Positions 12,801 to 38,145 of a DNA stretch of 64,000 nt are shown here, one piece after another. Every line of letters begins with the position of its first letter. The first letter of the stretch is position 1. A program made the position numbers and the translations under genes. The notes below the pieces were generated by a model, which saw only the letters and a list, made by a program, of their open reading frames with translations, was not told where the DNA came from and did not search any database. This DNA comes from Myxococcota bacterium (lineage in GTDB: Bacteria > Myxococcota_A > UBA796 > JAJRTE01 > JBJTQF01), in assembly GCA_046075485.1 (NCBI GenBank), contig JBJTQF010000153.1:1722-65721 (forward strand), read 5' to 3'.

Positions 12801-14426
12801 TTGTGATTCAAGTTTTACACGACCTATATCTGCATAAACCTCTGTCTCAGAAGGCATAATGTATTCTGAGTTGGCCGTCTCCACATGGGTCAGCCGCAGG
12901 GTACAAATGGCGGGCGTGGAGGTATCCAACAAGATGCTGTGCAGGCCCACACCGAGATTTGCGGTAAAGGGTGTGCTCCTGGGCTCAGGGCTTCGATACT
13001 CCGGCGGAGGTGCCAAAAGCACCGGCTCCAGCTTGGCAAGGGCTTTGCACCCTTCCACCTTCACGAGATAGTCACCCGCTTGGGTCACGTCTATAAAAAT
13101 GCCGGTCTGCCCCTGGAGGTTAAAGCGCCGCACCAGCGGTTGCTGCTGGCTCAGGCGGAGGGCCGACTTTTGGACCAGCTCGATCTGATCACGCTCTCCG
13201 GGCACAGACTTTCGACGCAGGAGCAAGGCGGTGATGGGGGGCGCTTCCCCTTCTCCCGCGACCATCACACCCAGTTGATAGGTATCGGATCCCGTCAAGG
13301 GCACCATCTGTCCCATCGGGTTGAGGATCTGCAAGGTATACGGAGTGCCCGGCGGCGCTTCGAGGCTCAACACCCGCGCTTGACCGGTTTTGTCCAAGTC
13401 CAGCTCCAGCAGGGGGAGTTTGCCCGCCTTTCGCTCGGCATCGCCCAGCTCCACCTGACGGATGCCTGCGCCCAGCTTGGCTTCTCCAGGGCCGGAGTGC
13501 AGGCTCAGCTTGGCGTTGACCATGCTCTGAAAGGTCACGCGGGCATATCCCGCCTCTGCCGGAAGCTCAAACCGCTCGATGCCCAGGGCGGAGACTTCCC
13601 GCCGCTCCAGCAAGTTGGGGGCCAAGCTGGAGAGCTGCGCTCGATAACTCACGGTGGGAGGCTGTGCGCCGTTGGGCTGCGGCAGCCGCTCGCCACCATA
13701 AAACGTCACCCGATAGGTGCCCGGCTCCAAGGTGCTGGCCATTCGACACCAACGTCGAGCGCCCGCGCCCGGCTCCAGCCGACAGAGGGGCACGTCCGGC
13801 TGCAACCAGAGGCCATCCCGCCAGATGCGCAGGTCGTTGAGGGCTTCTCCTCGGGCTTCCAGCAGCAGCTCTTGTTTTTCGGTCACTTCCAGCCAAGCGG
13901 AGAGCTGCTGGCCGTCGTCGAGGGGCTCTTGTTGGTCGCTGCGTAAGGGCAAGAAGCTCCGAACCGGATGCAGCTCTTCCACCCCACGCACTTCCAATAC
14001 GGCGGCACCGGAGGCACCCGGCGGCACCGTCAGGCGCACGCGGGCAGGACCGGCATCCAGAAAGACGTCCAAGCGGCCATCCAGCTCCCCTGCTCGTCCC
14101 GCACGCGGTCCCAGACCACTCAGCCGATCTTCAAGCTGAATGCCCACGCCCACTTGACTCTTGAGCTGGAGGATAAAGCGTCCCGGATAGGGCAGCTCGA
14201 TGTTGATGGGCTCGGGCTGGCTCAAGGAGACGGCGTAAGACGGGATGGCGAGCTGGAGTCCACTGCCCGGCTCAACAAGGGGAAGGGCCTGGATGTGCTC
14301 AAACGGGAGCATTCCGGTCATCCCGAGGGCACACAGGAGCGCCCAACGCCGAGGCGGTCGCCGTAAGGTGGGGGTCGAATTCCGGTTCGATTGAGGCAAG
14401 AGAGCTTCCAAGTTCCGCACAGCCAT
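9837..14426 (-). CDS. Very large secreted repeat protein of unknown function (about 1529 aa)
   Basis: Long ORF. I prefer the ATG at 14426, preceded by AGGAGG, over the track start at 14471. Signal-like RRWALLCALGMTGMLPF. At least 8 recurrences of G-x-Y-x-(L/V): GTYRVTF, GDYLVKV, GLYRLES, GSYRLST, GRYRLSS, GTYRLII, GKYQLEV, GTYYLGA. Acidic tail EEPSEAPSEEPSEEGD. Confidence 0.75.
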   Translation of the reverse strand: MAVRNLEALLPQSNRNSTPTLRRPPRRWALLCALGMTGMLPFEHIQALPLVEPGSGLQLAIPSYAVSLSQPEPINIELPYPGRFILQLKSQVGVGIQLEDRLSGLGPRAGRAGELDGRLDVFLDAGPARVRLTVPPGASGAAVLEVRGVEELHPVRSFLPLRSDQQEPLDDGQQLSAWLEVTEKQELLLEARGEALNDLRIWRDGLWLQPDVPLCRLEPGAGARRWCRMASTLEPGTYRVTFYGGERLPQPNGAQPPTVSYRAQLSSLAPNLLERREVSALGIERFELPAEAGYARVTFQSMVNAKLSLHSGPGEAKLGAGIRQVELGDAERKAGKLPLLELDLDKTGQARVLSLEAPPGTPYTLQILNPMGQMVPLTGSDTYQLGVMVAGEGEAPPITALLLRRKSVPGERDQIELVQKSALRLSQQQPLVRRFNLQGQTGIFIDVTQAGDYLVKVEGCKALAKLEPVLLAPPPEYRSPEPRSTPFTANLGVGLHSILLDTSTPAICTLRLTHVETANSEYIMPSETEVYADIGRVKLESQFPYMLVRPPLAGARVGLTMNLQQPERLSPARLLSPLPNMPVLREGQSSYLELARQQTFNLQLTVQEAGLYRLESLGLLEVSGELASALGGSLLATAGTGAGRNYRFETWLQPGSYRLSTRAQGASEGRLGLSFTRLPLRQAGALEPEQPSTLALSPREGALYTLKVKEPGRYRLSSQRMGRLARVRLEDEAGYPILSEQGGRATLDLLTGTYRLIILPEAVEQRVQTRWEAEKLPIKREGHGPFVLSLTEQVAHEWREPEPGAERLPDRWTFELPATASLRFALTGEMHATLLREGQSTATGYIPPRRGALLQLEPGKYQLEVTSFRPNHRQPYTLEVYPSVLLPGLSRKVKLPVVQTLAVGVAGAYAVSTRCNDDARARLSLPDGTLLLEGDDNGPDWNPRLETLLPVGQVQLSLDALQPSVRCQLRFQKLDAEAEQRLKAQQQKPQASSVVAPQSLISFRDNSGQVSIKETDFPNGVTVALQQRLQRQSWTTRTLSPSRVEGGRLSITLKAGETGMQSLPAQGEGWISFPAGILATLIKAGKVERVLSSGGDASFHRLRWEGQTLVLHALDDGQVSWHERSSLPYAVSVSAEPNVLRLSPTEGGVLWLKTPVMLDPMRLSAQGMVQQVHVWTGDQWEPLADKARLWTENTLIRVEHGSGALQLAWIPEQLRAMQEQRLTFEPGQSHGVTVASAPVGIPLPAVDALYSALAGQPGWVQLLCGETRGPLLALEPGQPTFWTVGAGGSCGSTPGTVRVVLSPQVPGSGSLVVRIERESLLPWREGEQSLGLLEPGGVRFGKLVIPEETPLGVGLRARKEVSTALLLDATGKRLAQGPVIGKTLSAGTYYLGAYLPADEKPLPVTLRVFGLEPRGTLPAPALQRQFREATAYSEPRLSPDESEQSTSAQLGWDMVSEVLPGQLPRGPALVRPLYPHDPALQARVLALDGVGVGESDAEGALDAEAGEDLPVVPEEPSEAPSEEPSEEGD

Positions 14427-14505
14427 GCGCCTCCTGTGATCACCATCGCTTGAGCATCCGCTGAGAACCAAGATGCCGAGTTGAGGAGCCGAGTTCAGAT
14501 CTTCA

Positions 14506-16201: not shown

Positions 16202-17191
16202 TCACTCCTCCGCCGGAGCTTCTCCATAGAGCACGGTGGTGGTGGCTCCATACACCAAACTGACAGAGATGGCATCTTCGCCGCTGTCCAGGCGAATATC
16301 CGCCACTTCTTCGAGCAAATCTTGCAGATCGGCCTGGAGCTCTTTGATACTATCCTTGTCAAAAAACGGCAACAAGCCCAGCTTGTCCAGCACGTCGTTG
16401 ACAAAGGTCTCAAGCTCGGCTATCGAAATGCCCCCGGCCAAGCGCGCATCCTGGAGCGGGAGGGTGGCCACGTAGCTGTGAACGGAGCGCACGTCCTCCA
16501 AGTCCAAAGAGACGTCGGTGCTGGCCCCCTGAGTCACCAGGGTCAAGTTGACGGTAAAGGCTGGACCTCGCGCATCCACTTGATAGCTGCTGTGCGTATA
16601 GGCCCCGTTCATGGACGCAAGCTGCGCCACGGTCTGATATCCGTCGGAGTGCTCTTGACCCGTCCACCAAGCCATGCTCACGGTGCCCGGCCCCGTCGAG
16701 TCCAGCGACTCCAGCCAGGGGGTCGCGCCCAGGGTGGCCTCCAGCGAACGGTTGATGGTCTCGACGTTAAAAATCGCAGCAATGGCGGCAGAAGCGGAAG
16801 CACTCAGCGCCCGATACTGCTCCTCGGTGATGGTGCCTTCGTCGAGAAGCTCTCTGAGCTGAGCCTTTATCCGGCTGCTCAAGAACGAACCCAGCTCATT
16901 GAGGGCGTTGGAGAGGCCGTTGTCGGTTTTGCCGTCTCCATCCACGTCGAGCTCGCCGGCGTTGCTGTCCGCCACCACCATCGTGGTGACTCGGTAGTCC
17001 GCATCCAAGACAGGCACAGCGGTGGCCGTGGGGGTCGGCTCAGGCGTCGGACTCACATTCACCGAGGGATCGGTCGCTTGGGGTTCACAGGCCGAGAACA
17101 GCATAAGGGTTGGAATCGCCAGCAGCGCGGCCAGCCGACGGCGGGCAAAACGATTCACAAGCTGAAGAGTCGATGCAACAGGCGCAGTCAT
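16202..17191 (-). CDS. Lipoprotein of unknown function (paralog of 48314..49234)
   Basis: ATG at 17191 preceded by GGAGG. Signal plus lipobox LMLFSAC. A Pro/Thr linker is followed by DVDGDGKTDNGLSNALNELG. It aligns along its length with the 48314 protein (DLDGNGTLDNNLPSVFDTLN). Confidence 0.7.
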   Translation of the reverse strand: MTAPVASTLQLVNRFARRRLAALLAIPTLMLFSACEPQATDPSVNVSPTPEPTPTATAVPVLDADYRVTTMVVADSNAGELDVDGDGKTDNGLSNALNELGSFLSSRIKAQLRELLDEGTITEEQYRALSASASAAIAAIFNVETINRSLEATLGATPWLESLDSTGPGTVSMAWWTGQEHSDGYQTVAQLASMNGAYTHSSYQVDARGPAFTVNLTLVTQGASTDVSLDLEDVRSVHSYVATLPLQDARLAGGISIAELETFVNDVLDKLGLLPFFDKDSIKELQADLQDLLEEVADIRLDSGEDAISVSLVYGATTTVLYGEAPAEE

Positions 17192-17406
17192 AAAAAACCT
17201 CCAGAGGTTGGCTGCCTGACCCACGACCTCCCGAGGCTCAAGGCACGACCAGCATCTTGATCTTAGCAAGTGAATGCGCTGGCATCAACAGTCCAGTGGC
17301 ACAAAATATCCAGACACCTTGGAATCTTCTGCCAATATTGTACCGATATTGCGCTGAGATGCAAAAGGCTTGTCGTATGAGTATAGAGCAGGCATAAAAT
17401 ACGACT

Positions 17407-20400
17407 ATGACACTCGTGGTAAATGATCGATATGCGCTGCTTCGGCAGCTTGGCAGCGGTGGCATGGGCCGGGTCTATTTGGCACAGGATCTGCGGCAAG
17501 CAGATATGCTGGTGGCCCTCAAGACCCTCTCGCCGGAAACGGCGACAGAAGCGTATGCCGCCAGCCTCGCCGATGAATTCCGCCTGCTGGCCGACCTCTC
17601 CCATCCCTATGTGGTGAGGGCCTACGACTATTCTTCCGTCCGCTATGTGGTGGGAGAGCCCGCTGAGCACGAACCCACCGAAGCACCCCCCCTCGGTGCC
17701 CCCCTGCTCACCCGAGAGTTTATCGCAGGCACTCCCCTGCCCTCTTTGATCGGCACACTGGATCTCGACGCGCAGCTTCGCGTCATGCTGGAGCTGACCG
17801 CGACGCTCCACTACCTGCATCGACAAGGGGTGCTGCATCGAGACGTCAAACCCGACAACGTGCTGGTGGTGGCTGCCGGAACCCTCCACCGACAGCTTCA
17901 AGCCCGACTGGTCGATTTTGGACTCGCTTGTTTTAAGGAACAAAGCACCACCCCCGTCGGCAATGCGCGCTATCTCGCCCCCGAAGTCCTGCTCGGTGGC
18001 ACCTTTGATGAAGCCGCTGAGCTCTACGCCCTCGGGGTGGTCTTCTACGAGCTGCTCACCGGCCATACCCCTTACACCGGAGAGAGCGCCGCAGACCTCG
18101 CACGGGCCCACGCACAGCTCCCCATTCCACCTCTGCCGGAGAATTTACCCCCTCGTCTGGCCCAGTGGGTGATGCGCCTGCTCGAGCGTGAGCCCTCTCG
18201 CCGACCCAGCAGTCAAGAGCTGCTCACTGGCCTTCAGAGCCTGCTTCAGCGTGATGGGGCCTCGTCTCCGGCACCGTGGAGCACTACCGGCGCAGCAAGA
18301 ATGGTGGGACGGCAGGAGGATGTGGCCTTCTTCAACCGCTGCCTCGAAGAGTTGGGCCAGCCCCTACCGGATCGACGCCCCATCCGCAGCTTGGTGTTGA
18401 CAGGACCGCCGGGGATCGGCAAAACCCGCCTCGTGAATCGCCTGAAACAGCTCGCTCAGCTCCGAGGTTTTCGGGTGGGCATGGCACAATGTCATCACGG
18501 CGGTGAGACCTTTCTGGCCGCCCGTCGCCTGCTCTCTGGTCTGATCCAAGAGCGTCCCGACCTGATCAGCAGCGACCGTGAGATCTTCAGAACCGTGCTG
18601 GCCGGAAAAACTCAGACCTATGCCGAACGTCCATCGCCTGAGCTCACCCCCGCGCAGGTGATGCTGCGGGTGCTCGACGGAGCACGCGGCTTTCTCGAAG
18701 CCCTCTCCGCCGAACAACGCATGGTGCTGATCCTCGAAGATGTTCACTTCATCGACCCCGAGAGCCTGGCACTCATGCGGCATCTGCTCCTGCACCTGAG
18801 CGCGCGCCAAGTACTGCTGATCTTTACGTCCTGGCCCCCCAGCCCAGCGCATTCCGAGATCGACCGGCTCACCCAAGAGCTGCCGGAGGAGGTCGGAGTT
18901 CCGGTCTCGCGAGAGCTGGAAGGGCTCGATCTGGAAGCGGTTCAACACCTGCTGCTGCGCACCTTCGGCGAGGATCCCCTCAACTTAGAGCTCGCGGAGC
19001 AGCTTCGACGCCAAACCGAAGGCAATCCCCTCTTCATCGAAGAGGTGCTGAAGCTCGCCCCCAATCCAACCGCACTCAGCCAGCGCATGCGAGAGAGCCA
19101 CCTGCCCGGTGCCGTGGGAGACGCCTTCCGTCAGCAGCTCAAGGTGCTCGGCGATGACGCCCTCGACACGCTCAAGGGCATTGCGGTGTGGGGAACGCCC
19201 GCCACACCCGCCGATATCATGGAGATCACCCGTCAGGCTCGCTCAGAATGCCTAGAAGGGCTGGAGGAAGCCCTCGCTTGCCAGCTCTTGCGTGAACAAG
19301 GCAACGGGTACTGGTTCTGGCACAGCACGATGGTGCAGCTCGTCGAAGAGCATATGAGCCCCGAAGAAATGCGGGAGTTCCACCGACGAGCAGGACGGCG
19401 ACGAGAAGCCGCAGGTGGATTGGGCGATCCGGAGCAGCTCAGCCGACTGGTGCTTCACTTTACCCGCGCACGCGATCCCTCGCGCGCACTCGGGTATGCA
19501 CTCACCGGCGCACGCACTGCCGCCGACCGTTTTCTTTCGCGTCAAGCCATCGAGCTCTACGAACGCGCCCGCGAGCTGAGCCTGGAGCTGATCGGCATCC
19601 ATCTGGGGGGCATGGGTGGACTGGTCGAAGTGCGTCAGCGCCTCGCTTCGCTCTATGCCTCCACCGGCGACCTGAACCGGGCGGAGAGTGAAGCCAGAAG
19701 TCTGCTGGACGATCCGTGGTTGCACTCCGATAAGTCAGCGCGCAGTCGGCTGCGGGTGCTCTTGGGCGAAGTGACCATGCGCCGAGGGGATCTCGCGGGT
19801 GCGCTGCAACACTTCAGCACGGCACTGGAGGAGACCACCGATGCGCAGCTCTGTGCAGGCATTTTGGACAATATGGCCGAGCTGCACATTCGACGCAGTG
19901 AGGTGGATGATGCCCTCTATGCTTGCCATCAAGCCATTCAGCGGCTGGGCAATGCGGAGGCCAGCTCTCAGCGGGGCTCCATCGCGTTCCATCGAGGGCG
20001 CTGTGCGGAGCTCCGGGGCAATCATCGTGAGGCGCTCCAGCACTACAATGAGGCACGCCAGCACTATCAGAAGCTGGCCCATCCGCCCCCTGGCATGGCG
20101 GCGGCCCTCAACGCCATTGCCACCATCTTGAACTACTTTGAGCAGTATCAGGATGCTCGTCATGTATTGTTGGACGCGCTGGATCTTCAAGAGCGGCAAG
20201 GTGCGCTCGAAGGGGCAGCCGCCACGCTGGATCGACTGGCCCTCAACAGCTTGGGTTTGGCCGATAACCAAGCGGCTATTACCTACGGAAAACGCAGTGT
20301 GGCCACCTGGAAACGTCTGGGCAACCCACAAGGTGAAGCCATAGCCGCCGCCAGCTTGGGCATCATCTTCCTCACCCGAGGGCTCTATCGAGACTCGCTG

Positions 20401-21150
20401 GCCAGCACGCAGCAGGCCCTGGAGCTTCAGCGGAAGCTCGGCGACCGTCAAGGCACCCTCAACAGCTTGATCAACCTCAGCATTCAGTACCTGGAGATCG
20501 GCGCGCACCGGCAGGCCCAGACCATCTTGATCGAGGCGTTGGAGCTCGCCAGCAGCTTAGGCCACCGCATGCGGCTGGGACGTTGTCATCACGTCTTGGG
20601 GGTCATCGACACCAGCTTGGGGAGTCTCACCTCGGCCCGCGAGCACCTCGAGCATGCGCATCGCGTGATGTCGGACATGGAAAACAAGGAGCTGCTCTCG
20701 GACGTGCTCTGTGCGGTGAGTGAGCTGGAAGTGAAGGAGCAGCGGTTTGATGCCGCCATTGAACACTGTGGGGAGGCCCTCGAGCTGGTGAAAGGTTCTC
20801 AGCGCCTGACCGCACAGCTTCAGGCTCACTTGGCGGAGGCACGCGCGAACCTCTCCAAAGGCACCGGGGACTTTAAGACCCTGCTGGCCGAGCTCGAAGG
20901 CTTTGAAGATCAGTCGCAGGCTCCTCTCAACCCGGATCAGCTCTGGCAGCTCTGGGAGGTGCGCGGTCGGCTGTGTTTGGCACTCGGTCGCCCCCAGGTG
21001 GCCTGCAAGTATCTCTCTCGGAGCATGGAGATCATGCGCTTGTGTTATGAGCAGATCCCCGAGCAGCTCCAGGCGCTCTATATCAACGACCCACGGCGAA
21101 AGCAGGTCCGAAAGATGCTGGAGCAGGCTCTAAAGTTGGCTCAGCGTTGA
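17407..21150 (+). CDS. Ser/Thr protein kinase fused to a STAND/AAA ATPase and TPR-like repeats (1247 aa)
   Basis: Kinase motifs GSGGMGRVY, HRDVKPDNVL, DFG and APE. Walker A LTGPPGIGKTRLV. Long C-terminal helical repeat region with TPR-like periodicity. Confidence 0.9.
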   Translation: MTLVVNDRYALLRQLGSGGMGRVYLAQDLRQADMLVALKTLSPETATEAYAASLADEFRLLADLSHPYVVRAYDYSSVRYVVGEPAEHEPTEAPPLGAPLLTREFIAGTPLPSLIGTLDLDAQLRVMLELTATLHYLHRQGVLHRDVKPDNVLVVAAGTLHRQLQARLVDFGLACFKEQSTTPVGNARYLAPEVLLGGTFDEAAELYALGVVFYELLTGHTPYTGESAADLARAHAQLPIPPLPENLPPRLAQWVMRLLEREPSRRPSSQELLTGLQSLLQRDGASSPAPWSTTGAARMVGRQEDVAFFNRCLEELGQPLPDRRPIRSLVLTGPPGIGKTRLVNRLKQLAQLRGFRVGMAQCHHGGETFLAARRLLSGLIQERPDLISSDREIFRTVLAGKTQTYAERPSPELTPAQVMLRVLDGARGFLEALSAEQRMVLILEDVHFIDPESLALMRHLLLHLSARQVLLIFTSWPPSPAHSEIDRLTQELPEEVGVPVSRELEGLDLEAVQHLLLRTFGEDPLNLELAEQLRRQTEGNPLFIEEVLKLAPNPTALSQRMRESHLPGAVGDAFRQQLKVLGDDALDTLKGIAVWGTPATPADIMEITRQARSECLEGLEEALACQLLREQGNGYWFWHSTMVQLVEEHMSPEEMREFHRRAGRRREAAGGLGDPEQLSRLVLHFTRARDPSRALGYALTGARTAADRFLSRQAIELYERARELSLELIGIHLGGMGGLVEVRQRLASLYASTGDLNRAESEARSLLDDPWLHSDKSARSRLRVLLGEVTMRRGDLAGALQHFSTALEETTDAQLCAGILDNMAELHIRRSEVDDALYACHQAIQRLGNAEASSQRGSIAFHRGRCAELRGNHREALQHYNEARQHYQKLAHPPPGMAAALNAIATILNYFEQYQDARHVLLDALDLQERQGALEGAAATLDRLALNSLGLADNQAAITYGKRSVATWKRLGNPQGEAIAAASLGIIFLTRGLYRDSLASTQQALELQRKLGDRQGTLNSLINLSIQYLEIGAHRQAQTILIEALELASSLGHRMRLGRCHHVLGVIDTSLGSLTSAREHLEHAHRVMSDMENKELLSDVLCAVSELEVKEQRFDAAIEHCGEALELVKGSQRLTAQLQAHLAEARANLSKGTGDFKTLLAELEGFEDQSQAPLNPDQLWQLWEVRGRLCLALGRPQVACKYLSRSMEIMRLCYEQIPEQLQALYINDPRRKQVRKMLEQALKLAQR

Positions 21151-21218: not shown

Positions 21219-23078
21219 ATGCCACAGCTTAAAGATCCGTTCCTGCCACCGATCCCCGATGAAGAAGGGATCCCCAGCTCCGAAGGCGATGGTTTTTTCG
21301 ACATCGGCAAGATGGTCGAGCGCTTTGAACAAGAGCAGACCGAGCGCATGAAGGCCCTGCTCGACATCACCCGGCAGATGAACGCCACCCTCGACGAAGA
21401 AACACTCCTGCCCTACATGATGGACCGCGTGGTGGAGCTGATGCGCGCCGATCATGGCCACCTCGTGCTGCTCAAACAGAGCTCCGAGATGAACCCGGAA
21501 GATCATCTCGTCACCTGGGATGTGAAGGTCTCGGTGTCCCGCTCCGGTGCTACCGGTGAAGGCAACCCGCCCAGTCAGACCCTCATCCGCCGTATCATCG
21601 AGACCCGCTCCCCCATGCGACTGGACGACGCCCTCTCCGACGCCTCCATCAAAGACAGCAAGAGCGCCCATGAGCTCGGGTTGCGCTCCGTGATGGCCGT
21701 GCCCCTGATCACCCGAAATCGGCTCATCGGTGTGCTCAGCGTGGAAAATCGTGGCAAGTTTGCTCAGTTTAATGAGGAGCAGCTCGATTTTTTGCAGATC
21801 TTTGGCCATCAAGCCGCCGTTGCCATCGAAAATGCCCGCCTCTACCGCAGCTTTCGAGATGCACAAGCTCAGCTCTCTCGCTCTCAACGCAGCCTGCGGG
21901 AAGAGGTGGAGGAGTCCCATCAAGCCCTTCGCTCCGAACGCCAGCGCCTGGAGACCCTCGAGAGTGAGGTGCGGCATCTGGACAAAATGGCCGCTTTGGG
22001 CATGATGGTCTCGGGCATCGCCCATGAGCTGAACAATCCGCTGACCGGCGCTTTGGGTTTTGCGCAGCTTTTGGCGATGGGCACCAATTTAACCGACCGA
22101 CAGCGGCAGATGCTCAACAACATCACCTCTGAGATGACACGGTGTGCGGAGATCACCCGCAACCTGCTGCGCTTCTCGAGGAAGTCGAAGTTTCAGCGCT
22201 CCTCGACCGATCTCAACAAGCTGATCAGCGAGGCGGTGGATCTGCGACGCTATCACTTCCAGGTCAACAATGTGCGGCTCTCGGAGGAGTATGACCATAA
22301 TATCACGCCGGGGATGATGGATCATTTTCAGCTTAAAGGGGTGATCCTCAACATCTTCAACAACGCTTTTGATGCGATCCAGGAGCACCGAGGCAGTGGT
22401 CATATCCGCGTTTTGACCCGACTCCAGGATGAGCGGCTGGCGTGTATTGAGATTCTGGACGACGGCGGGGGCATCAAGGAGCCTGAGAAGATCTTCGACC
22501 CCTTTTATACCACCAAAGAGGTGGGCAAAGGCACCGGCTTGGGCATGAGTGTTGCTTATGGAGTGGTGCGTTCGCATGGTGGAACGATCTCGGCCAGCAA
22601 TACGGAGGTGGGAGCGCGAATCACCATCACCTTACCGCTCGAGAGTCCAGAGCCGGAGCTGTTGACAAAACCGGTGGTGGAGCAGCCGACGGCGCAGCAG
22701 CTCAAGGGTGCCCGGATTCTGGTGGTGGACGACGAGGCGGTGATTCGGGAGCTCTGTCAGGCCCTGCTGGAAGGGGAAGGGTTTACGGTGGAGCTGGCCC
22801 CCGATGGCGTCTCCGCTCAGCGTGTGCTCAAAGATCGCACCTTTGATCTGATCATCTCCGACATTCGTATGCCGGGGGAGATGAGTGGGGTGGATCTCTA
22901 TCGTTGGCTCAAGACGGAGCGTCCGGAGAGCTGCCGAAGGGTGGTGTTTATCACCGGAGATCTGCTCACACAGGATTTGCGGGAGGCGTTGGGCGAAGTG
23001 GGCCGTCGGCTCCTCACCAAACCTTTTGAAGTGACCACATTGCTGGATGTGGTAAAAACCACCCTCGCCACCCCCTGA
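21219..23078 (+). CDS. GAF-domain hybrid sensor histidine kinase with C-terminal receiver
   Basis: GAF-like N-terminus, H-box HELNNPLTGA, N-box NIFNNAFDA, G-boxes DDGGGI and GTGLGMS, then a REC domain (ILVVDDE...DLIISDIRMPG...K). Confidence 0.9.
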   Translation: MPQLKDPFLPPIPDEEGIPSSEGDGFFDIGKMVERFEQEQTERMKALLDITRQMNATLDEETLLPYMMDRVVELMRADHGHLVLLKQSSEMNPEDHLVTWDVKVSVSRSGATGEGNPPSQTLIRRIIETRSPMRLDDALSDASIKDSKSAHELGLRSVMAVPLITRNRLIGVLSVENRGKFAQFNEEQLDFLQIFGHQAAVAIENARLYRSFRDAQAQLSRSQRSLREEVEESHQALRSERQRLETLESEVRHLDKMAALGMMVSGIAHELNNPLTGALGFAQLLAMGTNLTDRQRQMLNNITSEMTRCAEITRNLLRFSRKSKFQRSSTDLNKLISEAVDLRRYHFQVNNVRLSEEYDHNITPGMMDHFQLKGVILNIFNNAFDAIQEHRGSGHIRVLTRLQDERLACIEILDDGGGIKEPEKIFDPFYTTKEVGKGTGLGMSVAYGVVRSHGGTISASNTEVGARITITLPLESPEPELLTKPVVEQPTAQQLKGARILVVDDEAVIRELCQALLEGEGFTVELAPDGVSAQRVLKDRTFDLIISDIRMPGEMSGVDLYRWLKTERPESCRRVVFITGDLLTQDLREALGEVGRRLLTKPFEVTTLLDVVKTTLATP

Positions 23079-23346
23079 AGCCTGCCACGATGGACCGCGT
23101 ACTTGCCCTGCCGCTCCTCCCTTTCCCCAGCTTTCAGCCGTGTAAGCCACCCACATAAGCGATGCAGGACAAAATGACCCAGCGGGACATCCATGCCCGG
23201 ACAATCCTGTCCCACTGGAAAATCAGCATACGACCGCAGCGGACAGGCGATCCGATACAGCGGGCTCCGCATGTCCAGAGGCTGGAGAGCCGTCTTGAGC
23301 ACAGGTGACAGGGAGGAGCCAGTGGAAACAGTCGAGCATGGGTGGC

Positions 23347-23428
23347 ATCAGCGATCTTGAGGAGGCGGTCTGAGGCGTGGAATCAGCGATTTTGAGGAGG
23401 TGGTCTGAGGCGTGCAATCAGCGGATGG
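23347..23428. repeat. 35-bp tandem repeat, about 2.3 copies, abutting the stop codon of the PADN-repeat gene
   Basis: atcagcgatcttgaggaggcggtctgaggcgtgga / atcagcgattttgaggaggtggtctgaggcgtgca / atcagcggatgg. The third, partial copy contains the gene stop codon (tca at 23418-23420). Confidence 0.85.
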
Positions 23429-24275
23429 CGAGGCAGAGCTTGCTGGCCAAGTTGGAGCCGGTGCCACATGCATTCTCACCGGCCAGGAAGGCAGCCTGCT
23501 CAGCGGCACTCCAGACCAGGGCGTAGGTTTGTTCGTTCGCCGGCAGGTTGGCGATGGCCTTGCTGACCCGGTCGAGCTGGATACGGGAGGGGACCGCACC
23601 GGAAGCGACCAGTGCCAGTACAGTCTCAGCCTTCACCGTGGAGCGTCCATCGAGCTTCTCAATGCCGGTGGAGCCATTGACCACGGAAGAGAGACCATCT
23701 TCGTTGGTCAGCACCACGAAGGAAGTCTGGCGGTTGTCGGCGGGGGTGATGATCACCTCGGAGCCGGGCGCGGTGGCGTTGTCCGCCGGGGTGATGATCA
23801 CGCCCTGGAAGGGGCAGTTGATGCGATTGTCTGCCGGGGTGATGATCACGTTGTCAGCGGGTCCGAGGATGATCTCGGGGAGCTGGCAGGCGATCCGGTT
23901 GTCGGCGGGGGTGATGATCACCTCGGAGCCGGGGGCGGTGGCGTTATCCGCCGGGGTGATGATCACCTGATGAGGCCGAGGACGGCGATTGTCCGCCGGG
24001 GTGATGATCACTTGGCGAGGGCGACCGGGGCGATTGTCGGCAGGCCCGAGGATGACGCTGGACTCGGCGTCGGCGCACAGTCCTTCAAAGATGCGGGGCA
24101 TGGCGTTGTCGGCGGGGCCGAGGATCACGCAGGAGGTGCGCTCCGATCCATCAGCATACACCGAGGTCACTTCAAGCTGCTTGTCAGCGCCTTGAGCCTG
24201 TCCGGCGAGCAGCACGCACAGTCCAAACACCGTGCTCTTCATCACCTGCTTTGCCGTTTCAAGATAGCACTTCAT
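23418..24275 (-). CDS. Secreted protein with nine (V/I)I(I/L)(T/G)PADN octapeptide repeats, unknown function
   Basis: ATG at 24275 lies 5 nt after GGAGG; alternative start at the MKS at 24242. Signal peptide STVFGLCVLLAGQAQGA. Repeats VILGPADN x2, VIITPADN x6 and IILGPADN x1, then a roughly 100-aa non-repetitive C-terminal domain. Confidence 0.7.
   Translation of the reverse strand: MKCYLETAKQVMKSTVFGLCVLLAGQAQGADKQLEVTSVYADGSERTSCVILGPADNAMPRIFEGLCADAESSVILGPADNRPGRPRQVIITPADNRRPRPHQVIITPADNATAPGSEVIITPADNRIACQLPEIILGPADNVIITPADNRINCPFQGVIITPADNATAPGSEVIITPADNRQTSFVVLTNEDGLSSVVNGSTGIEKLDGRSTVKAETVLALVASGAVPSRIQLDRVSKAIANLPANEQTYALVWSAAEQAAFLAGENACGTGSNLASKLCLAIR
23733..24128 (-). repeat. 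Intragenic repeat block encoding the PADN octapeptides
   Basis: The 24-nt core GTTGTC(G/C)GC(G/C)GGGGTGATGATCAC recurs at irregular spacings of 24-72 nt. Two 69-bp segments (23733-23801 and 23898-23966) differ at only about 2 positions. Confidence 0.9.
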
Positions 24276-24579
24276 GGTCGCCTCCAAGTGAACAAGTCTT
24301 CGCATCCGGTCCGACGTGCGTTTGCTGTTGTCTCTATATACTTACATTTTCCGTGCCAAACTCCGCCCTTACCTGAAAATCGTCCAGACTTCAGATCCAA
24401 GACGGCATCGATTCCTGTGCCAGTTTTTTGGCAAGATGCTGAATCGCTTGAAGTTTCAACTTTATAAGGCGTCAATTCTCCAGATGAACTTTAGTCATTT
24501 CTTGTAGAATCAGAAAAACTGTCTGAAGGAGGAGGGAGTGCTCCGGAGGGGCGTGGGGGGGGATCCAACGGAGAATGGT

Positions 24580-24676
24580 CATAATGTCCGTTTCCAGGGC
24601 TTCCCAAAATGTCCGAATCGCCAAAATGTCCGAATGACTGCGAGGTCAAAATGTCCGAATGCTTAAATGTACGTGA
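24580..24676 (+). promoter_or_regulatory. Array of five AATGTCCG-type sites with alternating 25/17-bp spacing
   Basis: Exact CAAAATGTCCGAAT at 24605, 24622 and 24647. Degenerate CATAATGTCCGTTT at 24580 and TAAATGTACGTGA at 24664. The array sits in the divergent spacer between the PADN-repeat gene and bioB. Confidence 0.55.
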
Positions 24677-24792
24677 GAACAGTGCAGACACAGCGCCTAC
24701 ACTCTGAGTAAAATTGGGGGGGTGTTTTGGGGGGATGGGAGGGATTTGAGGGGAGAACGGCTTCAGACTTTTTGTCTGAATCACGTATTTTG

Positions 24793-24809
24793 ATACAGTT
24801 ATACTGTAT
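24793..24809. promoter_or_regulatory. Perfect palindrome ATACAGT-TAT-ACTGTAT (candidate operator)
   Basis: 7-bp inverted arms with a 3-nt spacer in an AT-rich stretch about 300 bp upstream of bioB. An ATGTACAT palindrome lies nearby at 24817-24824. Confidence 0.4.
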
Positions 24810-25110: not shown

Positions 25111-26082
25111 GTGCAAGCCATTCCTTCTGACGTGCGCTCTGACTGGACACGCGAAGAGGTGGAGGCGGTTTACCGCACACCCCTGCTTGAGCTGGTGTTT
25201 CGCGCCGCCACACTCCACCGGCGCTATCATCCCGCTCACGAAGTCCAGCTCTCGACCCTGCTGAGCATCAAGACCGGTGGCTGCCCGGAAGATTGTGCGT
25301 ACTGCCCACAGAGCGCACATTATGAAACGGACCTCGAGAGTGAAACGCTACTCGAAACGCATCGGGTTGTTGAAGCCGCTCAGCAAGCGCAGGCTCAAGG
25401 GGCCACCCGCTTTTGTATGGGGGCCGCTTGGCGAACGCCCCCCTCTGAGCGCCGATTCACGGAAGTGCTTGAGATGGTTAAAGAAGTTCGCTCACTCGGT
25501 CTGGAGACCTGCGCCACGCTCGGCATGCTCAAGCCCGGTCAAGCGGAGCGTCTCAAAGATGCGGGGCTGGATTATTACAACCATAACTTGGACACGTCGC
25601 CCGAGTATTATGGCAACATTATCTCCACCCGCACCTATCAGGATCGGCTGGAAACCCTCGCGCGGGTGCGTGGAGCAGGTCTCAACGTGTGCTGCGGGGG
25701 CATCATCGGCATGGGAGAGAGCCCTGAGGATGTCTGTGGCCTGCTTCACCAGCTCTGCTCCATGACCCCTCATCCCGAGAGTGTGCCCATCAACTCCCTC
25801 GTCGCGGTCGAAGGCACTCCGCTGGGCGATCAAGCGCCCGTGGATCCACTGGATTTCGTTCGTACCGTCGCCACGGCCCGCGTGCTCATGCCCAAGTCCT
25901 TCGTGCGCCTGAGCGCAGGTCGTACCCGCTTGAGCCCAGAAGCCCATGCTCTGGCTTTCCTCTCGGGTGCCAACTCCATCTTCACGGGAGATAAGCTGCT
26001 TACCACACCCAATCCCGGCGAAGATTTTGACAGCATGCTGCTACACCGGCTCGGTCTTCGTCCCCTTCAGATTGAAGCCTGA
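25111..26082 (+). CDS. bioB: Biotin synthase
   Basis: Radical [14 protein letters not shown] motif with typical BioB length and sequence ([15 protein letters not shown]...[12 protein letters not shown]...YNHNLDTS). GTG start at 25111 preceded by GGGAG. Confidence 0.95.
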
Positions 26083-26643
26083 GTCTTGCCTCTGCGTGTG
26101 ACGGATCCTTCACAAATCCCCCCGTAATGAAACTTACCCATGCGTTTCAGCCCCTGCCCCCTCTCAGAAGAGGCCGATCCCGCAGCCGCCCCCCTGATTC
26201 GGACATTCTGACCTACCGAACGATATTCCAGCACAGGCATTATGATTATGCTCTCATTAACCGGAAATATTGACCTTTTTTTACCCAGATGGCAGATTAT
26301 CATTTTAGTATCATCGAAAAAATGTGTTCGGACTTTATTTCCGACTCACGCTCGTCACATGCGGACATCCTGATGCACGCTCATCAGCGGACCTCTTGAC
26401 AACCTGAACAGGCAGATGACTCCAATTCGACCGCTCATGTGGAGCCTCAGAGCGCCGCCGTGCTCCTGCCCGACCGCGGTTTGAGCCCCCCTCAGCCCAT
26501 GCCCAGCTCCGATAGGCCCTTTTCGGACACCACTCGGGGGTCTTCGCCAGGCTCCGCGTACACTTTTGAGACATATTTATGGAGAAAAGAGGGTCATTTT
26601 TGGAAAGCATGCTTGTCAGCATGGTGGAGCGGAGGGACACTCG

Positions 26644-32196: not shown

Positions 32197-32497
32197 CCTG
32201 CCACTGGCTTGAGTCTTGCCCTTGGGTAGCAAATCCGCAGAAAGATGTGTGGCTTTTTCAGAGGGATGTGTCATCACTTCGCTACAAGACACCCAGCAAC
32301 AGACAGAATGTTGAATCAAAACCCTCTCAATCGATTTCCAACCCTTTGAATTTATTCATTTTTATTCCCCTCAAAAATATGATCGGCGGCTGCTCAACAT
32401 GGCCGTCGAGTTGCTTCTGGGTGTATTGCACCGCTGAAGCGTCCAAATCTTAGCCCTTATTATATGGCGGTGTTGACTCAAACCCTGGAGGACACCA

Positions 32498-32973
32498 TGC
32501 ATTCCCCTACCCTTTTTCCGGAAGCTGGCAAGAAAGGTGTGACGGTGTTGGCATTTGGCTCCTGCTCGATGCACCCGTGGTCCCCCCCTGTCTGGGTGTG
32601 GCGGTTTAGCCTGCTCAGCCTGCTCAGCCTGCTCAGCCTGCTCAGCCTGCTGGGATGGACTCCCTCTCTGATGGCCAAGCCGGATGTCTCCACCGCCGAG
32701 GGGGTGGACTCAGCCGTATCCTCTCAGGGGCTCCTGTTGTACCCGCCCTCCCATGCACTTTTTCCGCCCACACGCCATCAAGAGCGCCAAGCTGCGCCGG
32801 TTGTGGCGATGCCTGAGGAGGTAGAGCCGCAGTCTGCACCGGCTCAGACGGAAGAGGAGGAAGATCCCTGTCCTCGCCCCACCGAGCCCAGCGACACCGA
32901 GGAGCTTCCGGCTTGGCTCAAGTCGCTGATCGAGACCGGTGCTGGCCCTCTGGGAACCTGTGGCAGTCCGTAA
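32498..32973 (+). CDS. Hypothetical small secreted acidic protein
   Basis: ATG at 32498 lies 5 nt after GGAGG. Hydrophobic (LLS)4 segment, then an acidic, Pro-rich region. No recognisable domain. Confidence 0.35.
32608..32650 (+). repeat. 9-bp in-frame tandem repeat AGCCTGCTC, about 4.5 copies
   Basis: It encodes LLSLLSLLSLLSLL inside the putative signal peptide of the 32498 ORF. Confidence 0.85.
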
Positions 32974-34341: not shown

Positions 34342-37300
34342 TTATGCGCCCAACAGCGCATCCACCGGCAGATAAAGGCGAGCAAATCGGCGAGGATGCA
34401 CCACCCCCAGAGCACGAAGCTGTGTTTGAATACGCGCACGCTCGGCCTGATCCTGGTGGAGACGGGCCCAGCGTACATAAAGACGGTGCGCTTCCTGCTC
34501 CGCCTGCTCAAAGAGCTGCTCCGATGCCAGCAGAAGCTCCTCGAGCGGCGGCTTCAACCGGGGAAGTCTCCGCGCCTGCAAACACTTCAGCCCCGCTTCC
34601 AGCAACAGCGCCTGAGCCTTCGCCGGGGCCTGTTGCTCCAACCGGAGCACCCAGCAGCATCGCCTTACCCGTGCATGCCACCCAAAACGCTGAGGATGCT
34701 GTGGATGTTGCTCCAGCGCCGCCAACAGACTGTGACCCAAAATGCAGGTCCGAAAGATGCGCATGTGCTGCGGAAACATCAGCATGCTTGACCAAAACGC
34801 ACGCCCCGCCGGGAGCAGTGTTGTCACCGCTTCTTCTGCCTTGCCCATATAAAGCAGGTAACGAGCGAGCGAGTGGGTCCAAAAAAAATGCTGGAGATGC
34901 GTCTCTTGGAAAGGCCACGCGGCTTGTCCCTCCTCAAAGAGCGGCAAAAAATCTTCCGGGCGATCTTCCACCAAGGTCTGAAAGGCCAGCCCCACCGTGA
35001 GGAGGTGGACTTTCACATGCCGCTGCTGACGCTGCGTGGCATCGTCGAGCATGCCTGCCATCCAGCCTGCATGGGCCACAAAATCACCCCGCTGAAATGC
35101 AGACTCCATCCCGTAGATTTTGGCTGAAACGATACGAAATGCATCAATATTATCCAGTGAGTTGACTTTCTGAAGTGAGAGCTGCTGAAGCAGTTGGATC
35201 GCAGGCGCACACAGGGCCTCACACGCTCGCCAGCGACATTGATGATGGTAAGCCTTGCCAAGCTGAAGCATCCAGCTCCCCCTCAGCTCACTCAGCCCTT
35301 GAGCCGCCATCAGCCGCTCGGCTTCTTGGCGCATGCGCTCCACCCATCCCAGCGACAGAACACCTCCCGCCGAAAAACAGAAGACCTCCATCGCCAGGGC
35401 ACGAAGCAGCCGCATCGGATCGTTGCGTCGCAATAACAGACGCATGCGTCGGCCTTGAAACTCCGCCGCCGTCAGCGGGTCGATCAGCCCCAAACTCTGG
35501 ACGACACTGGCGCAGACATCCAGATAGTGCTGCTCTGAAGATGTGGGAGGCTGTTTCCAGCACTTCCGCCAGGGCCACAAGAGCTGAATGAGCAATAACG
35601 ACCCCATGATGGACACAATACGCCGCCACGCCGGACGACGCAGCTTCAGCCCATACCGGTTAAACTGGAGCTGCATCAGCGTGAGCCCCTTCTCCAGCGC
35701 CCCACTCACCGCATAATGCAGGGTCGCCGCCCTCAACAGCTCATCACGCTCCGGCTCGTCAGGAGGCGAGAGGGCATACGCCTGCTCGAGCAGCTCCGCC
35801 GCGTGCAAGCCGTCCCCTGCGAGCTGACAGCTTTGAGAATAACGGATCAACATGTCTCGTCTACGGCGAGGCGCCCACGCCAGCCGGGTCTGAAGCGGCT
35901 CCGCTCGCTGAAACAACGAGAGGGCCAGGGCCACCGCACCATGTTGAAGGGCCTTCTCCGCTCGGGTCAAGAGCTGGGTCATGGCCTGCTCCCAGGCTTC
36001 GGCCTCCAGATACAGCTCCGCGAGGGCTTCATGCTCGGCTCCTTCCAGCACCTCCAGCGCCTGTGCCAGCCGCAGGGCCAAGAGCCGTTTCATCGGTGAC
36101 TGTAACCTCGAGAGCACCGCCCGCCGATACTGAAAGTGGGTAAACTCCACCACCCGCAGCAGCCGAGTGCCTGCGGTTTTGATCCATCGAAGCTCCAGCA
36201 GCCGCTCCAGCCACGCCTGAAGTTGAGGCGGCTCTTGCAGGGCCTGAAACAACACGGGCCAAGAGAGGGGTTGATCCAGCAGGGCCAGCAGCTCCAAGGG
36301 GGTTTGCAACGGCGGGGGCAGTCGCTCCAGCTCTTGTAATAGCAGATCTTCCCGCGTAAGCACGGGCGCGGGTGAGGTCTGGCTCAGCTCTTGCAGTCCA
36401 TGCTGCAACCACTTCTGGAGAAAGAGCGGACTGCCACCGGCGATTGCCACCGCACGTTGTCGTTGCTCTGGGCTCAGCTCTGGAAAGAGCCAGTCGGCGA
36501 GCTGAGCTGCGGCTTCAGGGGCCAAGGGCTCGAGGCGCAGGCGACGACACCGCACCCGGGAGGTCTGGTCCAGCAGCACCTGAAAAAAAGGGGTGAGGCT
36601 GGCGCCGATGGGCTGCATAAAACCCAACATGCGCATGGGAGGGCCGGAATCCGCCAGATGTAAGGCGCGCAAGAGCTGGGCGGAGTCTTCGTCGGCCCAC
36701 TGAAGGTCATCGATCAGCCACACCACCGGCTTGAGGGTCTGAAGCTGACGCACCACCATCACTACACCCGAAAAAAAGAGCTGCTGCCGACGCTGAGGGG
36801 GCATCGGCTCTGGCTCTTCACGAAGCTGAAAAACATCCTCCAGGCGTGGAAACCGCTGACAGAGTGCTGCCCGTTCATCCAAGCTGAGGGCCTGCAAGCA
36901 GTGTGATGGCAAGCGACGCACTTCCTCCATCACCTCTTCCAGCACGTCGTCGAGGGCCTTAAACGGAACGTCGGCGCGCTCACGACACAGGCCACCAAAG
37001 ACCCACACCACACGCTGCTGAAGGCGCTGCTGAAGCGCACGCAGCAAGGCGGACTTGCCAATGCCCGATTCTCCCTCCACCAGCAACAGCCGCTCGGGGG
37101 TCAGCGGTCGCCCCAAGAGCCACTGCTCCAGCAGGTCCAGCATGGCATGACGCCCGATCAAGGGGGGCTCCGTTTGAAGCGGAGGCGCTTGTTCTCGCCG
37201 CACCTGCTCAGCCCCGAGCTGCTCCAAGAGCTGTGTACCTCCCGCTCGTACACGCGGTGAGGGGACCAGCAACTGGTTGATCCATTGGCTCCACATCGGC

Positions 37301-38145
37301 GGATAATGCAGCCCGATGGACTCCAGGGAGGGAAACTCACCTCGGAGCTTTCGGTGTCGCCGCATGGCCGGTCGGCCCGTAAACGGAAGTCGCCCGCTGA
37401 GGAGCTGATAGAGCATCACCCCCACGGCGTACCAATCGCTGGCGGGGGTGGGGACTCGTTTTAAGAGCTGCTCCGGTGCGGCATAATCGAAGGTGCCACC
37501 CCCTCCACGGAGGCGCATTTGACCTTCTATCAACTGGACGAGGCCAAGATCTAGGATCACCAGGCGATTGTCTGGGGTCACCAAGAGGTTGCCGGGTTTG
37601 AGATCACAGTGAACGCGGTGACTCGCATGCAGGGCCAGCAGTCCTTCACAGAGCTGCACCAGCAGCTTCTCGAGCAAGACAAGCTGGGGGGGCTGGAGGG
37701 TTTTGCCCCCAAAATCAGCGACTGAGAGCCGGTCATCCTCGGCATCCCGGGGCGGGCTGGGCGCGTTTTTTAAGCCCGTGCTGAGGGGCTGTGAGGACGA
37801 GAGGGTCTCCGTGATCCAGCCTGCTCTGCTGGCCTCGCGACTGGATGGACCGGGACGTTGGCCTCCCCAGACGGCATCGAGCAGACGGACTCCCGGCACG
37901 TACTCCATGACGATGCCCAGTGCATGCTCCAATCGAATCAGCTCATAGATCTTGATCACATTGGGATGACGGAGGCTACTGTGCAGGTTGGCTTCTTGTT
38001 TAAATGCATGGTGATGCCGCTTTGAATGGAGAACCTTGAGGGCAACATGTTCCTGACGGTCTCGATCAAACACCAACTGGACTTCACCAAAACCACCGCG
38101 TCCCAGTACCTGCTTCAACTGAAAGCGTGGGGGAAGCTCGAGCAT
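34342..38145 (-). CDS. Ser/Thr protein kinase fused to a STAND/AAA ATPase and a long helical region (1267 aa)
   Basis: Kinase motifs GRGGFGEV, HCDLKPGNLL, DLG and APE. Walker A LLVEGESGIGKSALL. Same architecture as 17407..21150. Confidence 0.9.
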   Translation of the reverse strand: MLELPPRFQLKQVLGRGGFGEVQLVFDRDRQEHVALKVLHSKRHHHAFKQEANLHSSLRHPNVIKIYELIRLEHALGIVMEYVPGVRLLDAVWGGQRPGPSSREASRAGWITETLSSSQPLSTGLKNAPSPPRDAEDDRLSVADFGGKTLQPPQLVLLEKLLVQLCEGLLALHASHRVHCDLKPGNLLVTPDNRLVILDLGLVQLIEGQMRLRGGGGTFDYAAPEQLLKRVPTPASDWYAVGVMLYQLLSGRLPFTGRPAMRRHRKLRGEFPSLESIGLHYPPMWSQWINQLLVPSPRVRAGGTQLLEQLGAEQVRREQAPPLQTEPPLIGRHAMLDLLEQWLLGRPLTPERLLLVEGESGIGKSALLRALQQRLQQRVVWVFGGLCRERADVPFKALDDVLEEVMEEVRRLPSHCLQALSLDERAALCQRFPRLEDVFQLREEPEPMPPQRRQQLFFSGVVMVVRQLQTLKPVVWLIDDLQWADEDSAQLLRALHLADSGPPMRMLGFMQPIGASLTPFFQVLLDQTSRVRCRRLRLEPLAPEAAAQLADWLFPELSPEQRQRAVAIAGGSPLFLQKWLQHGLQELSQTSPAPVLTREDLLLQELERLPPPLQTPLELLALLDQPLSWPVLFQALQEPPQLQAWLERLLELRWIKTAGTRLLRVVEFTHFQYRRAVLSRLQSPMKRLLALRLAQALEVLEGAEHEALAELYLEAEAWEQAMTQLLTRAEKALQHGAVALALSLFQRAEPLQTRLAWAPRRRRDMLIRYSQSCQLAGDGLHAAELLEQAYALSPPDEPERDELLRAATLHYAVSGALEKGLTLMQLQFNRYGLKLRRPAWRRIVSIMGSLLLIQLLWPWRKCWKQPPTSSEQHYLDVCASVVQSLGLIDPLTAAEFQGRRMRLLLRRNDPMRLLRALAMEVFCFSAGGVLSLGWVERMRQEAERLMAAQGLSELRGSWMLQLGKAYHHQCRWRACEALCAPAIQLLQQLSLQKVNSLDNIDAFRIVSAKIYGMESAFQRGDFVAHAGWMAGMLDDATQRQQRHVKVHLLTVGLAFQTLVEDRPEDFLPLFEEGQAAWPFQETHLQHFFWTHSLARYLLYMGKAEEAVTTLLPAGRAFWSSMLMFPQHMRIFRTCILGHSLLAALEQHPQHPQRFGWHARVRRCCWVLRLEQQAPAKAQALLLEAGLKCLQARRLPRLKPPLEELLLASEQLFEQAEQEAHRLYVRWARLHQDQAERARIQTQLRALGVVHPRRFARLYLPVDALLGA

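Follow-up and report, generated by a model that had tools for sequence, protein, structure and literature searches.

A stretch of 64,000 nucleotides of contig JBJTQF010000153.1 (hereafter the window) contains a minus-strand gene for an exported protein that carries nine copies of a nearly invariant octapeptide. This is a real gene, and it belongs to a small family without a prior description. On the basis of its sequence and that of its relatives, we favor viewing the protein as an array of octapeptides that would be recognized individually and are held on free spacers; more tentatively, we consider it to be a precursor of many copies of one peptide.

The repeat gene and its product

The gene and its parts are as follows.

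23418-24275, minus strand: gene for the repeat protein, coding for 285 aa and closed by a stop codon at 23418-23420, supported by orthologs and by third-position variation in this frame
24281-24285, minus strand: ribosome-binding site GGAGG, 5 nt from the ATG and invariant across all orthologous upstream regions
24189-24275, minus strand: Sec-type signal peptide (aa 1-29), read from sequence, with predicted cleavage AQG/AD and no lipobox
24075-24188, minus strand: mature N-terminal segment (aa 30-67), holding octapeptide 1 between Cys49 and Cys67
23733-24128, minus strand: array of octapeptides (aa 50-181), in which (V/I)I(I/L)(T/G)PADN is present nine times with spacers of 0-16 residues
23421-23732, minus strand: post-repeat beta hairpin and C-terminal four-helix domain (aa 182-285), ending in a disulfide loop, C-x10-C-LAIR
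23342-23423: 35-bp tandem duplication (2.3 copies, 91% identical) that starts with the gene's final two codons and stop and extends into its 3' untranslated region

The minus-strand open reading frame (ORF) runs over 23418-24305 and has an upstream ATG at 24305. The true start is the ATG at 24275, since GGAGG directly precedes it and all orthologs begin at an equivalent Met, in agreement with the start assumed in an earlier note on this DNA. That note had also proposed a Sec-type signal peptide, which is borne out by the n/h/c layout and the A-x-G site: the signal peptide reads MKCYLETAKQVMKSTVFGLCVLLAGQAQG and is followed by ADK after cleavage. The same layout, with an A-x-A or A-x-G site, is found in P0002, P0003, P0005, and P0012.

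The nine octapeptides comprise VILGPADN (two copies), VIITPADN (six), and IILGPADN (one), with start-to-start spacings of 24, 15, 15, 15, 16, 8, 16, and 15 residues. The linkers are, in order, AMPRIFEGLCADAESS, RPGRPRQ, RRPRPHQ, ATAPGSE, RIACQLPE, none, RINCPFQG, and ATAPGSE. In the ORF translation and the motif map, the copy number, copy types, and linkers are exactly those given in the earlier note. The array was picked up as a DNA repeat by Tandem Repeats Finder and by a second repeat search, and the octapeptide motif does not occur elsewhere in the window in any frame.

A longer ORF on the opposite strand (23412-24467, plus strand) is spurious, as the variation between copies sits at the third positions of the minus-strand frame. 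The 35-bp tandem duplication was considered as a terminator hairpin and rejected because its folding is poorer than that of shuffled sequence; neither locus L003 nor locus L001 conserves it. A generic terminator scan detected no terminator on the strand of the repeat gene, and no Rfam families were found in the window.

A small family with lineage-specific versions of the motif

The family has approximately 11 members, all metagenomic, and the metagenome-assembled genome of one of them carries the label Myxococcota bacterium. When 1.84 billion cluster representatives were scanned exhaustively with HMMER, 15 matches were returned, eight of which were true relatives (P0002-P0006, P0010, P0012, and P0015), while P0007, P0008, P0009, P0011, P0013, and P0014 were rejected as low-complexity or unrelated repeat proteins. 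P0016 and one member in locus L249 were added later. When 5.8 billion proteins were searched through a word index, the window sequence alone retrieved itself only, the full alignment retrieved one further member, and a profile of the C-terminal domain alone had no matches. Scans of a genome collection with the window protein and with its close clade had no matches either, and the histidine kinase encoded next to the repeat gene gave only generic ones (≤37% identity). A scan of metagenome DNA with a pattern of three spaced motifs yielded, among the matches listed, only the known locus L009 and unrelated repeats. The MoxR ATPase encoded in the window reaches no more than 66-67% identity in Myxococcota genomes; the host lineage is uncultured, probably myxobacterial, and sparsely represented among reference genomes.

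The statement that the repeat belongs to no named family still stands. In Pfam searches with the window protein and each of the nine aligned members, no match stood above E = 0.003 and none was shared, NCBIfam had no match for the window protein, and PDB sequence searches had none for any family member. PADLOC, which covers anti-phage defense, matched neither the repeat protein nor a nearby lipoprotein, and matched a nearby Ser/Thr kinase via its generic kinase domain only. A literature search for the motif strings returned irrelevant contexts only.

Family members are 185-310 aa long. In full-length members, the signal peptide is followed by a conserved N-terminal segment of short length, the array of 3-10 motifs, a short beta hairpin similar to a degenerate motif, and a C-terminal domain of ~80 residues that ends in G-x-C-x10-C-x-A-L-R. 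P0012 (L251, 1008-1565) and P0005 (L252, 108-551) retain the signal peptide and array and stop soon after the array, without the C-terminal domain; in the case of P0012, no remnant of this domain was found in any downstream frame. Their missing domain could be an assembly or frameshift artifact.

The family consensus of the motif is h-h-h-x-P-x-D-N. It is near-invariant inside each protein, and the version varies between proteins: VIITPADN in the window, and VIISPADN, ILISPADN, VVIRPSDN, VVIQPSDN, LIASPTDN, and IV(I/V)SPTDN in others. Position 4 is T, S, G, R, or Q across members. Motifs are spaced 8, 12-13, 15-16, 17, or 19-36 residues apart, the recurrent start-to-start distances being 8 (14 times), 12 (6), 15 (13), and 16 (8), plus scattered longer ones. 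The directly abutting copies delimit an exact unit of eight residues. The spacers, of 0-28 residues, are rich in R, P, S, G, T, and A, and those of seven residues are hydrophilic. In seven of the 10 tabulated members, motif 1 directly follows a Cys, and another Cys comes 16-19 residues after it. The number of Cys is even in every mature protein, and spacer Cys pairs bracket one or two motifs, which fits an oxidizing extracytoplasmic location.

The repeat protein is only 24-41% identical between loci, versus 63-80% for the adjacent histidine kinase. Copy number also differs: P0016 (L009) has 10 motifs versus three in P0015 (L001), with flanking genes that are 99.7-100% identical (L001/L250 versus L009). 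This difference is either strain-level variation in copy number or a collapse of repeats in assembly.

A similar motif was observed in another protein. The metagenome contig L246 (plus strand, frame 0) encodes a low-GC secreted protein with a long collagen-like G-x-y region followed by five V(I/V)IPP(V/A/N)DN(G/T)T decapeptides. The motif, hhh-P-P-x-D-N, has a 10-residue period, the protein is unrelated, and the likeness is possibly convergent.

Selection acts on the copies and not on the spacers

Among the octapeptide copies within a gene, the Nei-Gojobori proportion of synonymous differences (pS) was 0.45-0.62 and that of nonsynonymous differences (pN) was 0-0.125. In equal-length spacers of the same genes, pN was about equal to pS (range 0.44-0.84). 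The window protein follows this pattern, with a pS of 0.46 and a pN of 0.105 for its copies, and a pN of 0.50 and a pS of 0.55 for its spacers. In L003, the seven VIISPADN copies all differ in DNA, with synonymous changes at all eight codons and zero amino acid change, and P0003, P0004, and P0006 each use TCN as well as AGY codons for the Ser of the motif. By these measures, the copies within one gene are old and the spacers evolve near-neutrally. The identity of the copies is therefore kept by purifying selection and not by recent duplication or gene conversion. The exception is L009 (P0016), where the copies are 24-bp units that are near-identical in DNA, which points to a recent expansion.

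Conservative variants that are tolerated between orthologs are barred within any one protein, which means that the copies are selected to match each other. Sameness within a protein, combined with a lineage-specific version, implies separate recognition of every copy by a single, specific partner that co-evolves with it. Such sameness is expected if every copy has to fit one partner or if all copies have to be set free as the same molecule.

A conserved putative promoter of the sigma-54 type and an upstream element

The earlier note had placed the gene in an AT-richer, ORF-poor, repeat-laden neighborhood. The 800-nt intergenic stretch upstream of the gene is AT-richer (GC content of 0.50-0.55 versus 0.60-0.64) and contains direct repeats, and it is now accounted for as a regulatory region with two conserved features.

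24343-24358, minus strand: putative sigma-54-type promoter TGGCACGGAAAATGTA, in which the -24 GG is present and the -12 element has GT instead of GC
24604-24660, plus strand: candidate activator (enhancer) site, made up of CCAAAATGTCCGAAT in three direct copies that lie 330-385 nt upstream of the start

Sigma-54 promoters carry GG and GC ten bases apart (TGGCAC-N5-TTGCW). It should be noted that the argument for such a promoter here relies on positional conservation, because the window copy deviates at -12 and its match alone is not above chance. Between clades, the upstream DNA is unalignable except for the ribosome-binding site, the sigma-54-type element ~65-75 nt before the start, and scattered single columns. 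Within this otherwise unalignable DNA, GG and TTGC are present at equal distance in five orthologous loci (TGGAACGCAGATTGCT, TGGAACGCAAATTGCA, CGGCACAGAAATTGCA, TGGAATGCAAATTGCA, and TGGAATGCAACTTGCT).

The upstream element, AAAATGTCCGA, accompanies the promoter in six independent loci, five of which are sequence-divergent. The same 9-11-mer lies 300-450 nt upstream, in either orientation, in L001/L009, L002, L003/L004, and L251, with one to three copies per locus, and it is degenerate in L249. Promoter and upstream-element positions are 9914-9929 and 9619-9656 in L003, 9553 in L001, 2568 in L002, and 702 in L251; the last of these loci retains both although its repeat protein is without the C-terminal domain. 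Four matches to the element were found in the window versus 0.77 expected. Judged by sequence and position, the array of AAAATGTCCGA copies would look like the enhancer site of a sigma-54 activator, and the whole arrangement would indicate a gene that is tightly switched. No gene for an enhancer-binding activator was found in any of the retrieved loci.

The fourth copy of the upstream element in the window, AGAATGTCCGA (26199-26209, minus strand), has one mismatch and is intergenic, just downstream of bioB and of a convergent BatA-like gene. The bioB-proximal half of the upstream intergenic region also contains the AT-rich palindromes ATACAGT-TAT-ACTGTAT and TCAGAC-TTTTT-GTCTGA (24793-24809 and 24763-24779), and L003 has a palindrome, TTGTATTAATACAA (9437-9450), in the corresponding half. 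These could be bio operators or sites for another regulator.

Predicted structure

With the family alignment, AlphaFold2 modeled residues ~210-285 as four helices with a predicted local distance difference test (pLDDT) score of 87-91. The array scored 31-41, with strands of only 3-4 residues at the motifs. The model built from the single sequence was poor and uninformative. A Foldseek search of the better model against the PDB gave no match (best E-value of 0.33). In these models the array is without a confident fold, and the C-terminal domain is the only confidently folded part.

Genes flanking the repeat gene

The neighboring genes in the window are listed below; for both kinases, the association with the repeat gene is by synteny only.

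21219-23078, plus strand: hybrid histidine kinase (GAF-HisKA-HATPase-REC), cytoplasmic, convergent with the repeat gene
17407-21150, plus strand: STAND-like Ser/Thr kinase that has AAA_16 and TPR regions, encoded upstream of the histidine kinase
16202-17269, minus strand: lipoprotein-like protein with lipobox FSAC, divergent from the Ser/Thr kinase, probable start at ATG 17191
25111-26082: biotin synthase gene bioB (Radical_SAM and BATS), on the other side of the repeat gene

The histidine kinase and bioB had been regarded in the earlier note simply as neighbors. The kinase turned out to be syntenic and not incidental, since the repeat gene converges on it wherever the 3' flank is visible (the window, L001, L002, L003, L004, L009, and L250). 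The bioB gene is not conserved: on the 5' side, the window and L003 have bioB, and L001, L002, L009, L249, and L250 have a GDSL lipase gene. The Ser/Thr kinase gene and the lipoprotein-like gene precede the histidine kinase gene in the window, L001, L002, and L003. The Ser/Thr kinase is 44-57% identical between loci, and the histidine kinase 63-80%. Homologs of the lipoprotein-like protein at the same position are 35% (L001) and 58% (L003) identical; this protein has no Pfam family and contains a DVDGDGKTDN segment. As all loci come from one clade, the synteny of the kinase pair could partly reflect common descent.

In the window and the homologous loci, no gene for a protease, transporter, or membrane receptor is conserved beside the repeat gene, which extends across loci the earlier remark on the absence of an adjacent tailoring enzyme or protease. 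No csg- or fap-like genes were found in any locus, and there was no profile match to functional amyloid subunits (curli CsgA, Fap).

Possible functions of the octapeptide array

The earlier note had offered two readings, a short-period solenoid and a multi-core peptide precursor. The second is the better supported of the two in a processing-only sense, like pheromone or Phr propeptides: selection on the copies and the free spacers speak for it, and what falls away is the version with enzymatic tailoring, for which no conserved gene was found. We tentatively take the repeat protein to be a multi-copy peptide precursor. This reading is ranked first because the unit is exactly eight residues where copies abut, the spacers are unconstrained, all eight positions are fixed, the copy number appears to vary, the only well-folded domain is dispensable, and precedents exist.

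The scheme would run as follows. The sigma-54-type promoter would keep the gene silent until an enhancer-binding activator switches transcription on. The product would be an exported, disulfide-bonded protein whose working part is a single lineage-specific octapeptide in 3-10 copies (three aliphatic residues followed by x, Pro, a small residue, Asp, and Asn). After Sec export, envelope or extracellular proteases would cut the array and thereby free, in many molar equivalents, one and the same short peptide with the ending ...P-x-D-N, which would act as a diffusible ligand or signal. We infer the proteolytic release, the identity of the partner, and the link to the neighboring kinases from the features described above.

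Bacillota have tandemly duplicated, Sec-exported pheromone propeptides that extracellular proteases cleave (PMC11343458), and fungi have repeat-peptide precursors (PMC7329392). The Phr propeptides of the Rap-Phr/RRNPPA systems (PMC11343458) resemble the repeat protein in being Sec-exported, in carrying several copies of one short peptide of lineage-specific sequence, in being processed by general extracellular proteases encoded elsewhere (as we propose here), and in having a TPR-containing cytoplasmic protein encoded nearby. However, Phr propeptides are ~40-60 aa long with 2-3 copies, are co-transcribed with the Rap receptor, and occur in Gram-positive bacteria and phages. The repeat protein is 4-6 times longer, has disulfides, flanking domains, and a putative sigma-54-type promoter, and comes from a Myxococcota-like diderm. 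Its nearest TPR protein is the Ser/Thr kinase, encoded two genes away on the opposite strand, with a TPR region that shows no excess divergence. The Kex2-processed repeat proteins and yeast alpha-factor-type precursors of fungi (PMC7329392) share the signal peptide, the many identical copies, the spacers, and the species-specific version. In fungal precursors, every copy has a dibasic KR or RR site, whereas the repeat protein has no dibasic pattern. The setting also differs, being the eukaryotic secretory pathway in fungi versus a bacterial envelope here.

Several observations weigh against a precursor. There is no uniform cleavage site: R or K follows 34 of the 54 non-abutting copies (~63%), and the motif is preceded by no more than a small or polar residue. 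Both neighboring kinases are cytoplasmic, with genes that converge on the repeat gene, and the conserved neighborhood provides no protease, transporter, or membrane receptor gene. Co-evolution with the peptide was looked for in the Ser/Thr kinase, and its TPR region is no more diverged than its kinase domain. The 8-residue spacers alternate hydrophobic residues and carry paired Cys; these features, with disulfide loops that would enclose one or two motifs, suggest local folded hairpins and not a simple cleavable string. Finally, only ~11 sequences, all metagenomic, are available, and both the difference in copy number and the two truncated members could be assembly artifacts. The main limitation is that the family is confined to a rare, uncultured clade.

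A more specific version of the precursor reading can be imagined, although we consider it improbable. The octapeptide would be a quorum or kin signal that is re-imported, read by the TPR region of the STAND-type Ser/Thr kinase, and relayed via the GAF hybrid histidine kinase. The repeat protein would then be a sigma-54-gated polyprotein of up to ten copies and the first dedicated precursor of this kind in a Gram-negative, myxobacterium-like lineage.

Secreted precursors with many peptide copies are well known in fungi, animals, and plants, and more recently from the Phr systems of Bacillus phages and their hosts; none is known in Gram-negative bacteria or Myxococcota, and the intercellular signals of the latter are only partly defined. 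If the precursor reading is true, tandem-copy secreted precursors extend to a Gram-negative, myxobacterium-like lineage under sigma-54 control. The evolutionary signature itself (near-saturated synonymous sites, identical copies, neutral spacers, a lineage-specific peptide, and a conserved sigma-54-type control region) singles out one octapeptide as the functional unit.

A display protein that is not cleaved is possible and nearly as likely as a precursor. It would stay intact in the periplasm, at the surface, or in the matrix and present many strand-plus-turn modules (hhh-x and P-x-D-N) to one partner, as an adhesin, a matrix cross-linker, or a multi-headed inhibitor or decoy, with some modules in disulfide-closed loops. 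Selection on the copies and their homogeneity would look the same as for a precursor. The even Cys counts, with pairs that bracket one or two motifs (C49-C67 and C130-C154 in the window protein, and equivalents in P0002, P0005, and P0012), the amphipathic 8-residue spacers, the conservation of the small N- and C-terminal domains, and the lack of a conserved cleavage site all suit such a protein. The same is true of a fast-evolving protein of varying copy number (24-41% identity) beside slow neighbors (63-80%), a pattern typical of exposed proteins. However, two members are without the only confidently folded domain, a possible anchor, and no lipobox, C-terminal sorting signal, or transmembrane segment was found that could serve instead. 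No adhesin-type domain was detected with Pfam, and binding repeats are not usually so strictly identical at all eight positions.

A regular beta-solenoid or beta-roll, the first of the two readings in the earlier note, is now disfavored and seems unlikely. The octapeptide would form half a coil, with stacked Asn and aliphatic ladders, and the spacer would form the other half. Spacings do cluster at 8, 15-16, and 24 residues (38 of 58 intervals are close to multiples of 8), some 8-residue spacers resemble decayed motifs (e.g., RILFPSLP and RINCPFQG), Asn and Asp are invariant within a Pro-containing turn, and AlphaFold2 puts strands on every motif. The likeness to RTX beta-rolls and the 16-residue coils of ice-nucleation proteins lies in a short strand followed by a turn of small residues, Asp, and Asn, with spacings that are often 8 or 16. 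Nevertheless, no single coil length fits, as P0004 consists entirely of 12-13-residue units, and P0012 and P0016 have runs of 8-residue units. The second half-coil would be hydrophilic and unconstrained: the 7-residue spacers have no core-facing positions and evolve neutrally. AlphaFold2 builds no solenoid, the array pLDDT being 31-41 even with the alignment, and Pfam, PDB, and Foldseek searches matched no solenoid family or structure. Identical copies within one protein would also not be needed. Should the protein be a display scaffold or a new strand-turn fold, it would still represent an undescribed family under an uncommon selection regime.

An enzyme-tailored, multi-core precursor of a peptide made by the ribosome and modified after translation (RiPP), for instance with graspetide-like Thr/Ser-Asp cross-links or radical-SAM chemistry by the bioB-like gene, is very improbable. 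Multi-core precursors of cyanobactins and of graspetides such as plesiocin likewise alternate short conserved repeats with variable segments; the repeat protein has conserved cores in several copies, its motif contains Thr or Ser as well as Asp, and a radical-SAM gene adjoins the repeat gene in the window and L003. However, RiPP precursors are cytoplasmic substrates encoded beside tailoring enzymes, whereas the Sec signal peptide and disulfides of the repeat protein point to an extracytoplasmic life, and the gene content of the window, L001, L002, L003, L009, L249, and L250 conserves only the kinase pair. None of the loci has a conserved gene for an ATP-grasp enzyme, a cyclodehydratase, an MNIO, a peptidase, or an ABC exporter. 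Several members have Arg, Gln, or Gly at position 4, which leaves no conserved Thr/Ser nucleophile. The bioB product was rejected as a maturase: it is an ordinary Radical_SAM and BATS biotin synthase, 80% identical between loci, and the other clade has the GDSL lipase instead.

That the repeat ORF is no gene at all, being a chance frame over a DNA tandem repeat or the antisense of a real gene, would fit the longer antisense ORF and the absence of the exact window protein from the contig index, but is effectively refuted by the codon-position pattern, with copy variation that is synonymous in this frame, by about ten orthologs with the same architecture and signal peptide, and by the conserved ribosome-binding site and promoter.

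Other features of the window

A bacterial alpha-2-macroglobulin gene (1948 aa; 343-8623, minus strand) adjoins a gene for a PBP1c-type transglycosylase/transpeptidase, the two forming the usual periplasmic protease-trap pair. This pair is unrelated to the repeat gene by position, yet it shows that the envelope faces proteases.

Large ORFs without a Pfam match are located at 9837-14471 (1544 aa), 58448-60640 (730 aa), 42647-44251, and 53145-54764. An ORF at 32464-32973 (plus strand), also without a family match, has an (LLS)n run, LLSLLSLLSLLSLL, in its hydrophobic N-terminal region.

The window is dense in signaling genes, rich in Ser/Thr kinases, and also contains BatA/MoxR genes. A second Pkinase-AAA_16 protein is encoded at 34342-38145 (minus strand) and a third Ser/Thr kinase at 54749-56797 (minus strand). 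In addition, a PP2C phosphatase is encoded at 44336-45151 (minus strand), and an FHA-GAF-adenylate/guanylate cyclase at 50607-52976 (plus strand).

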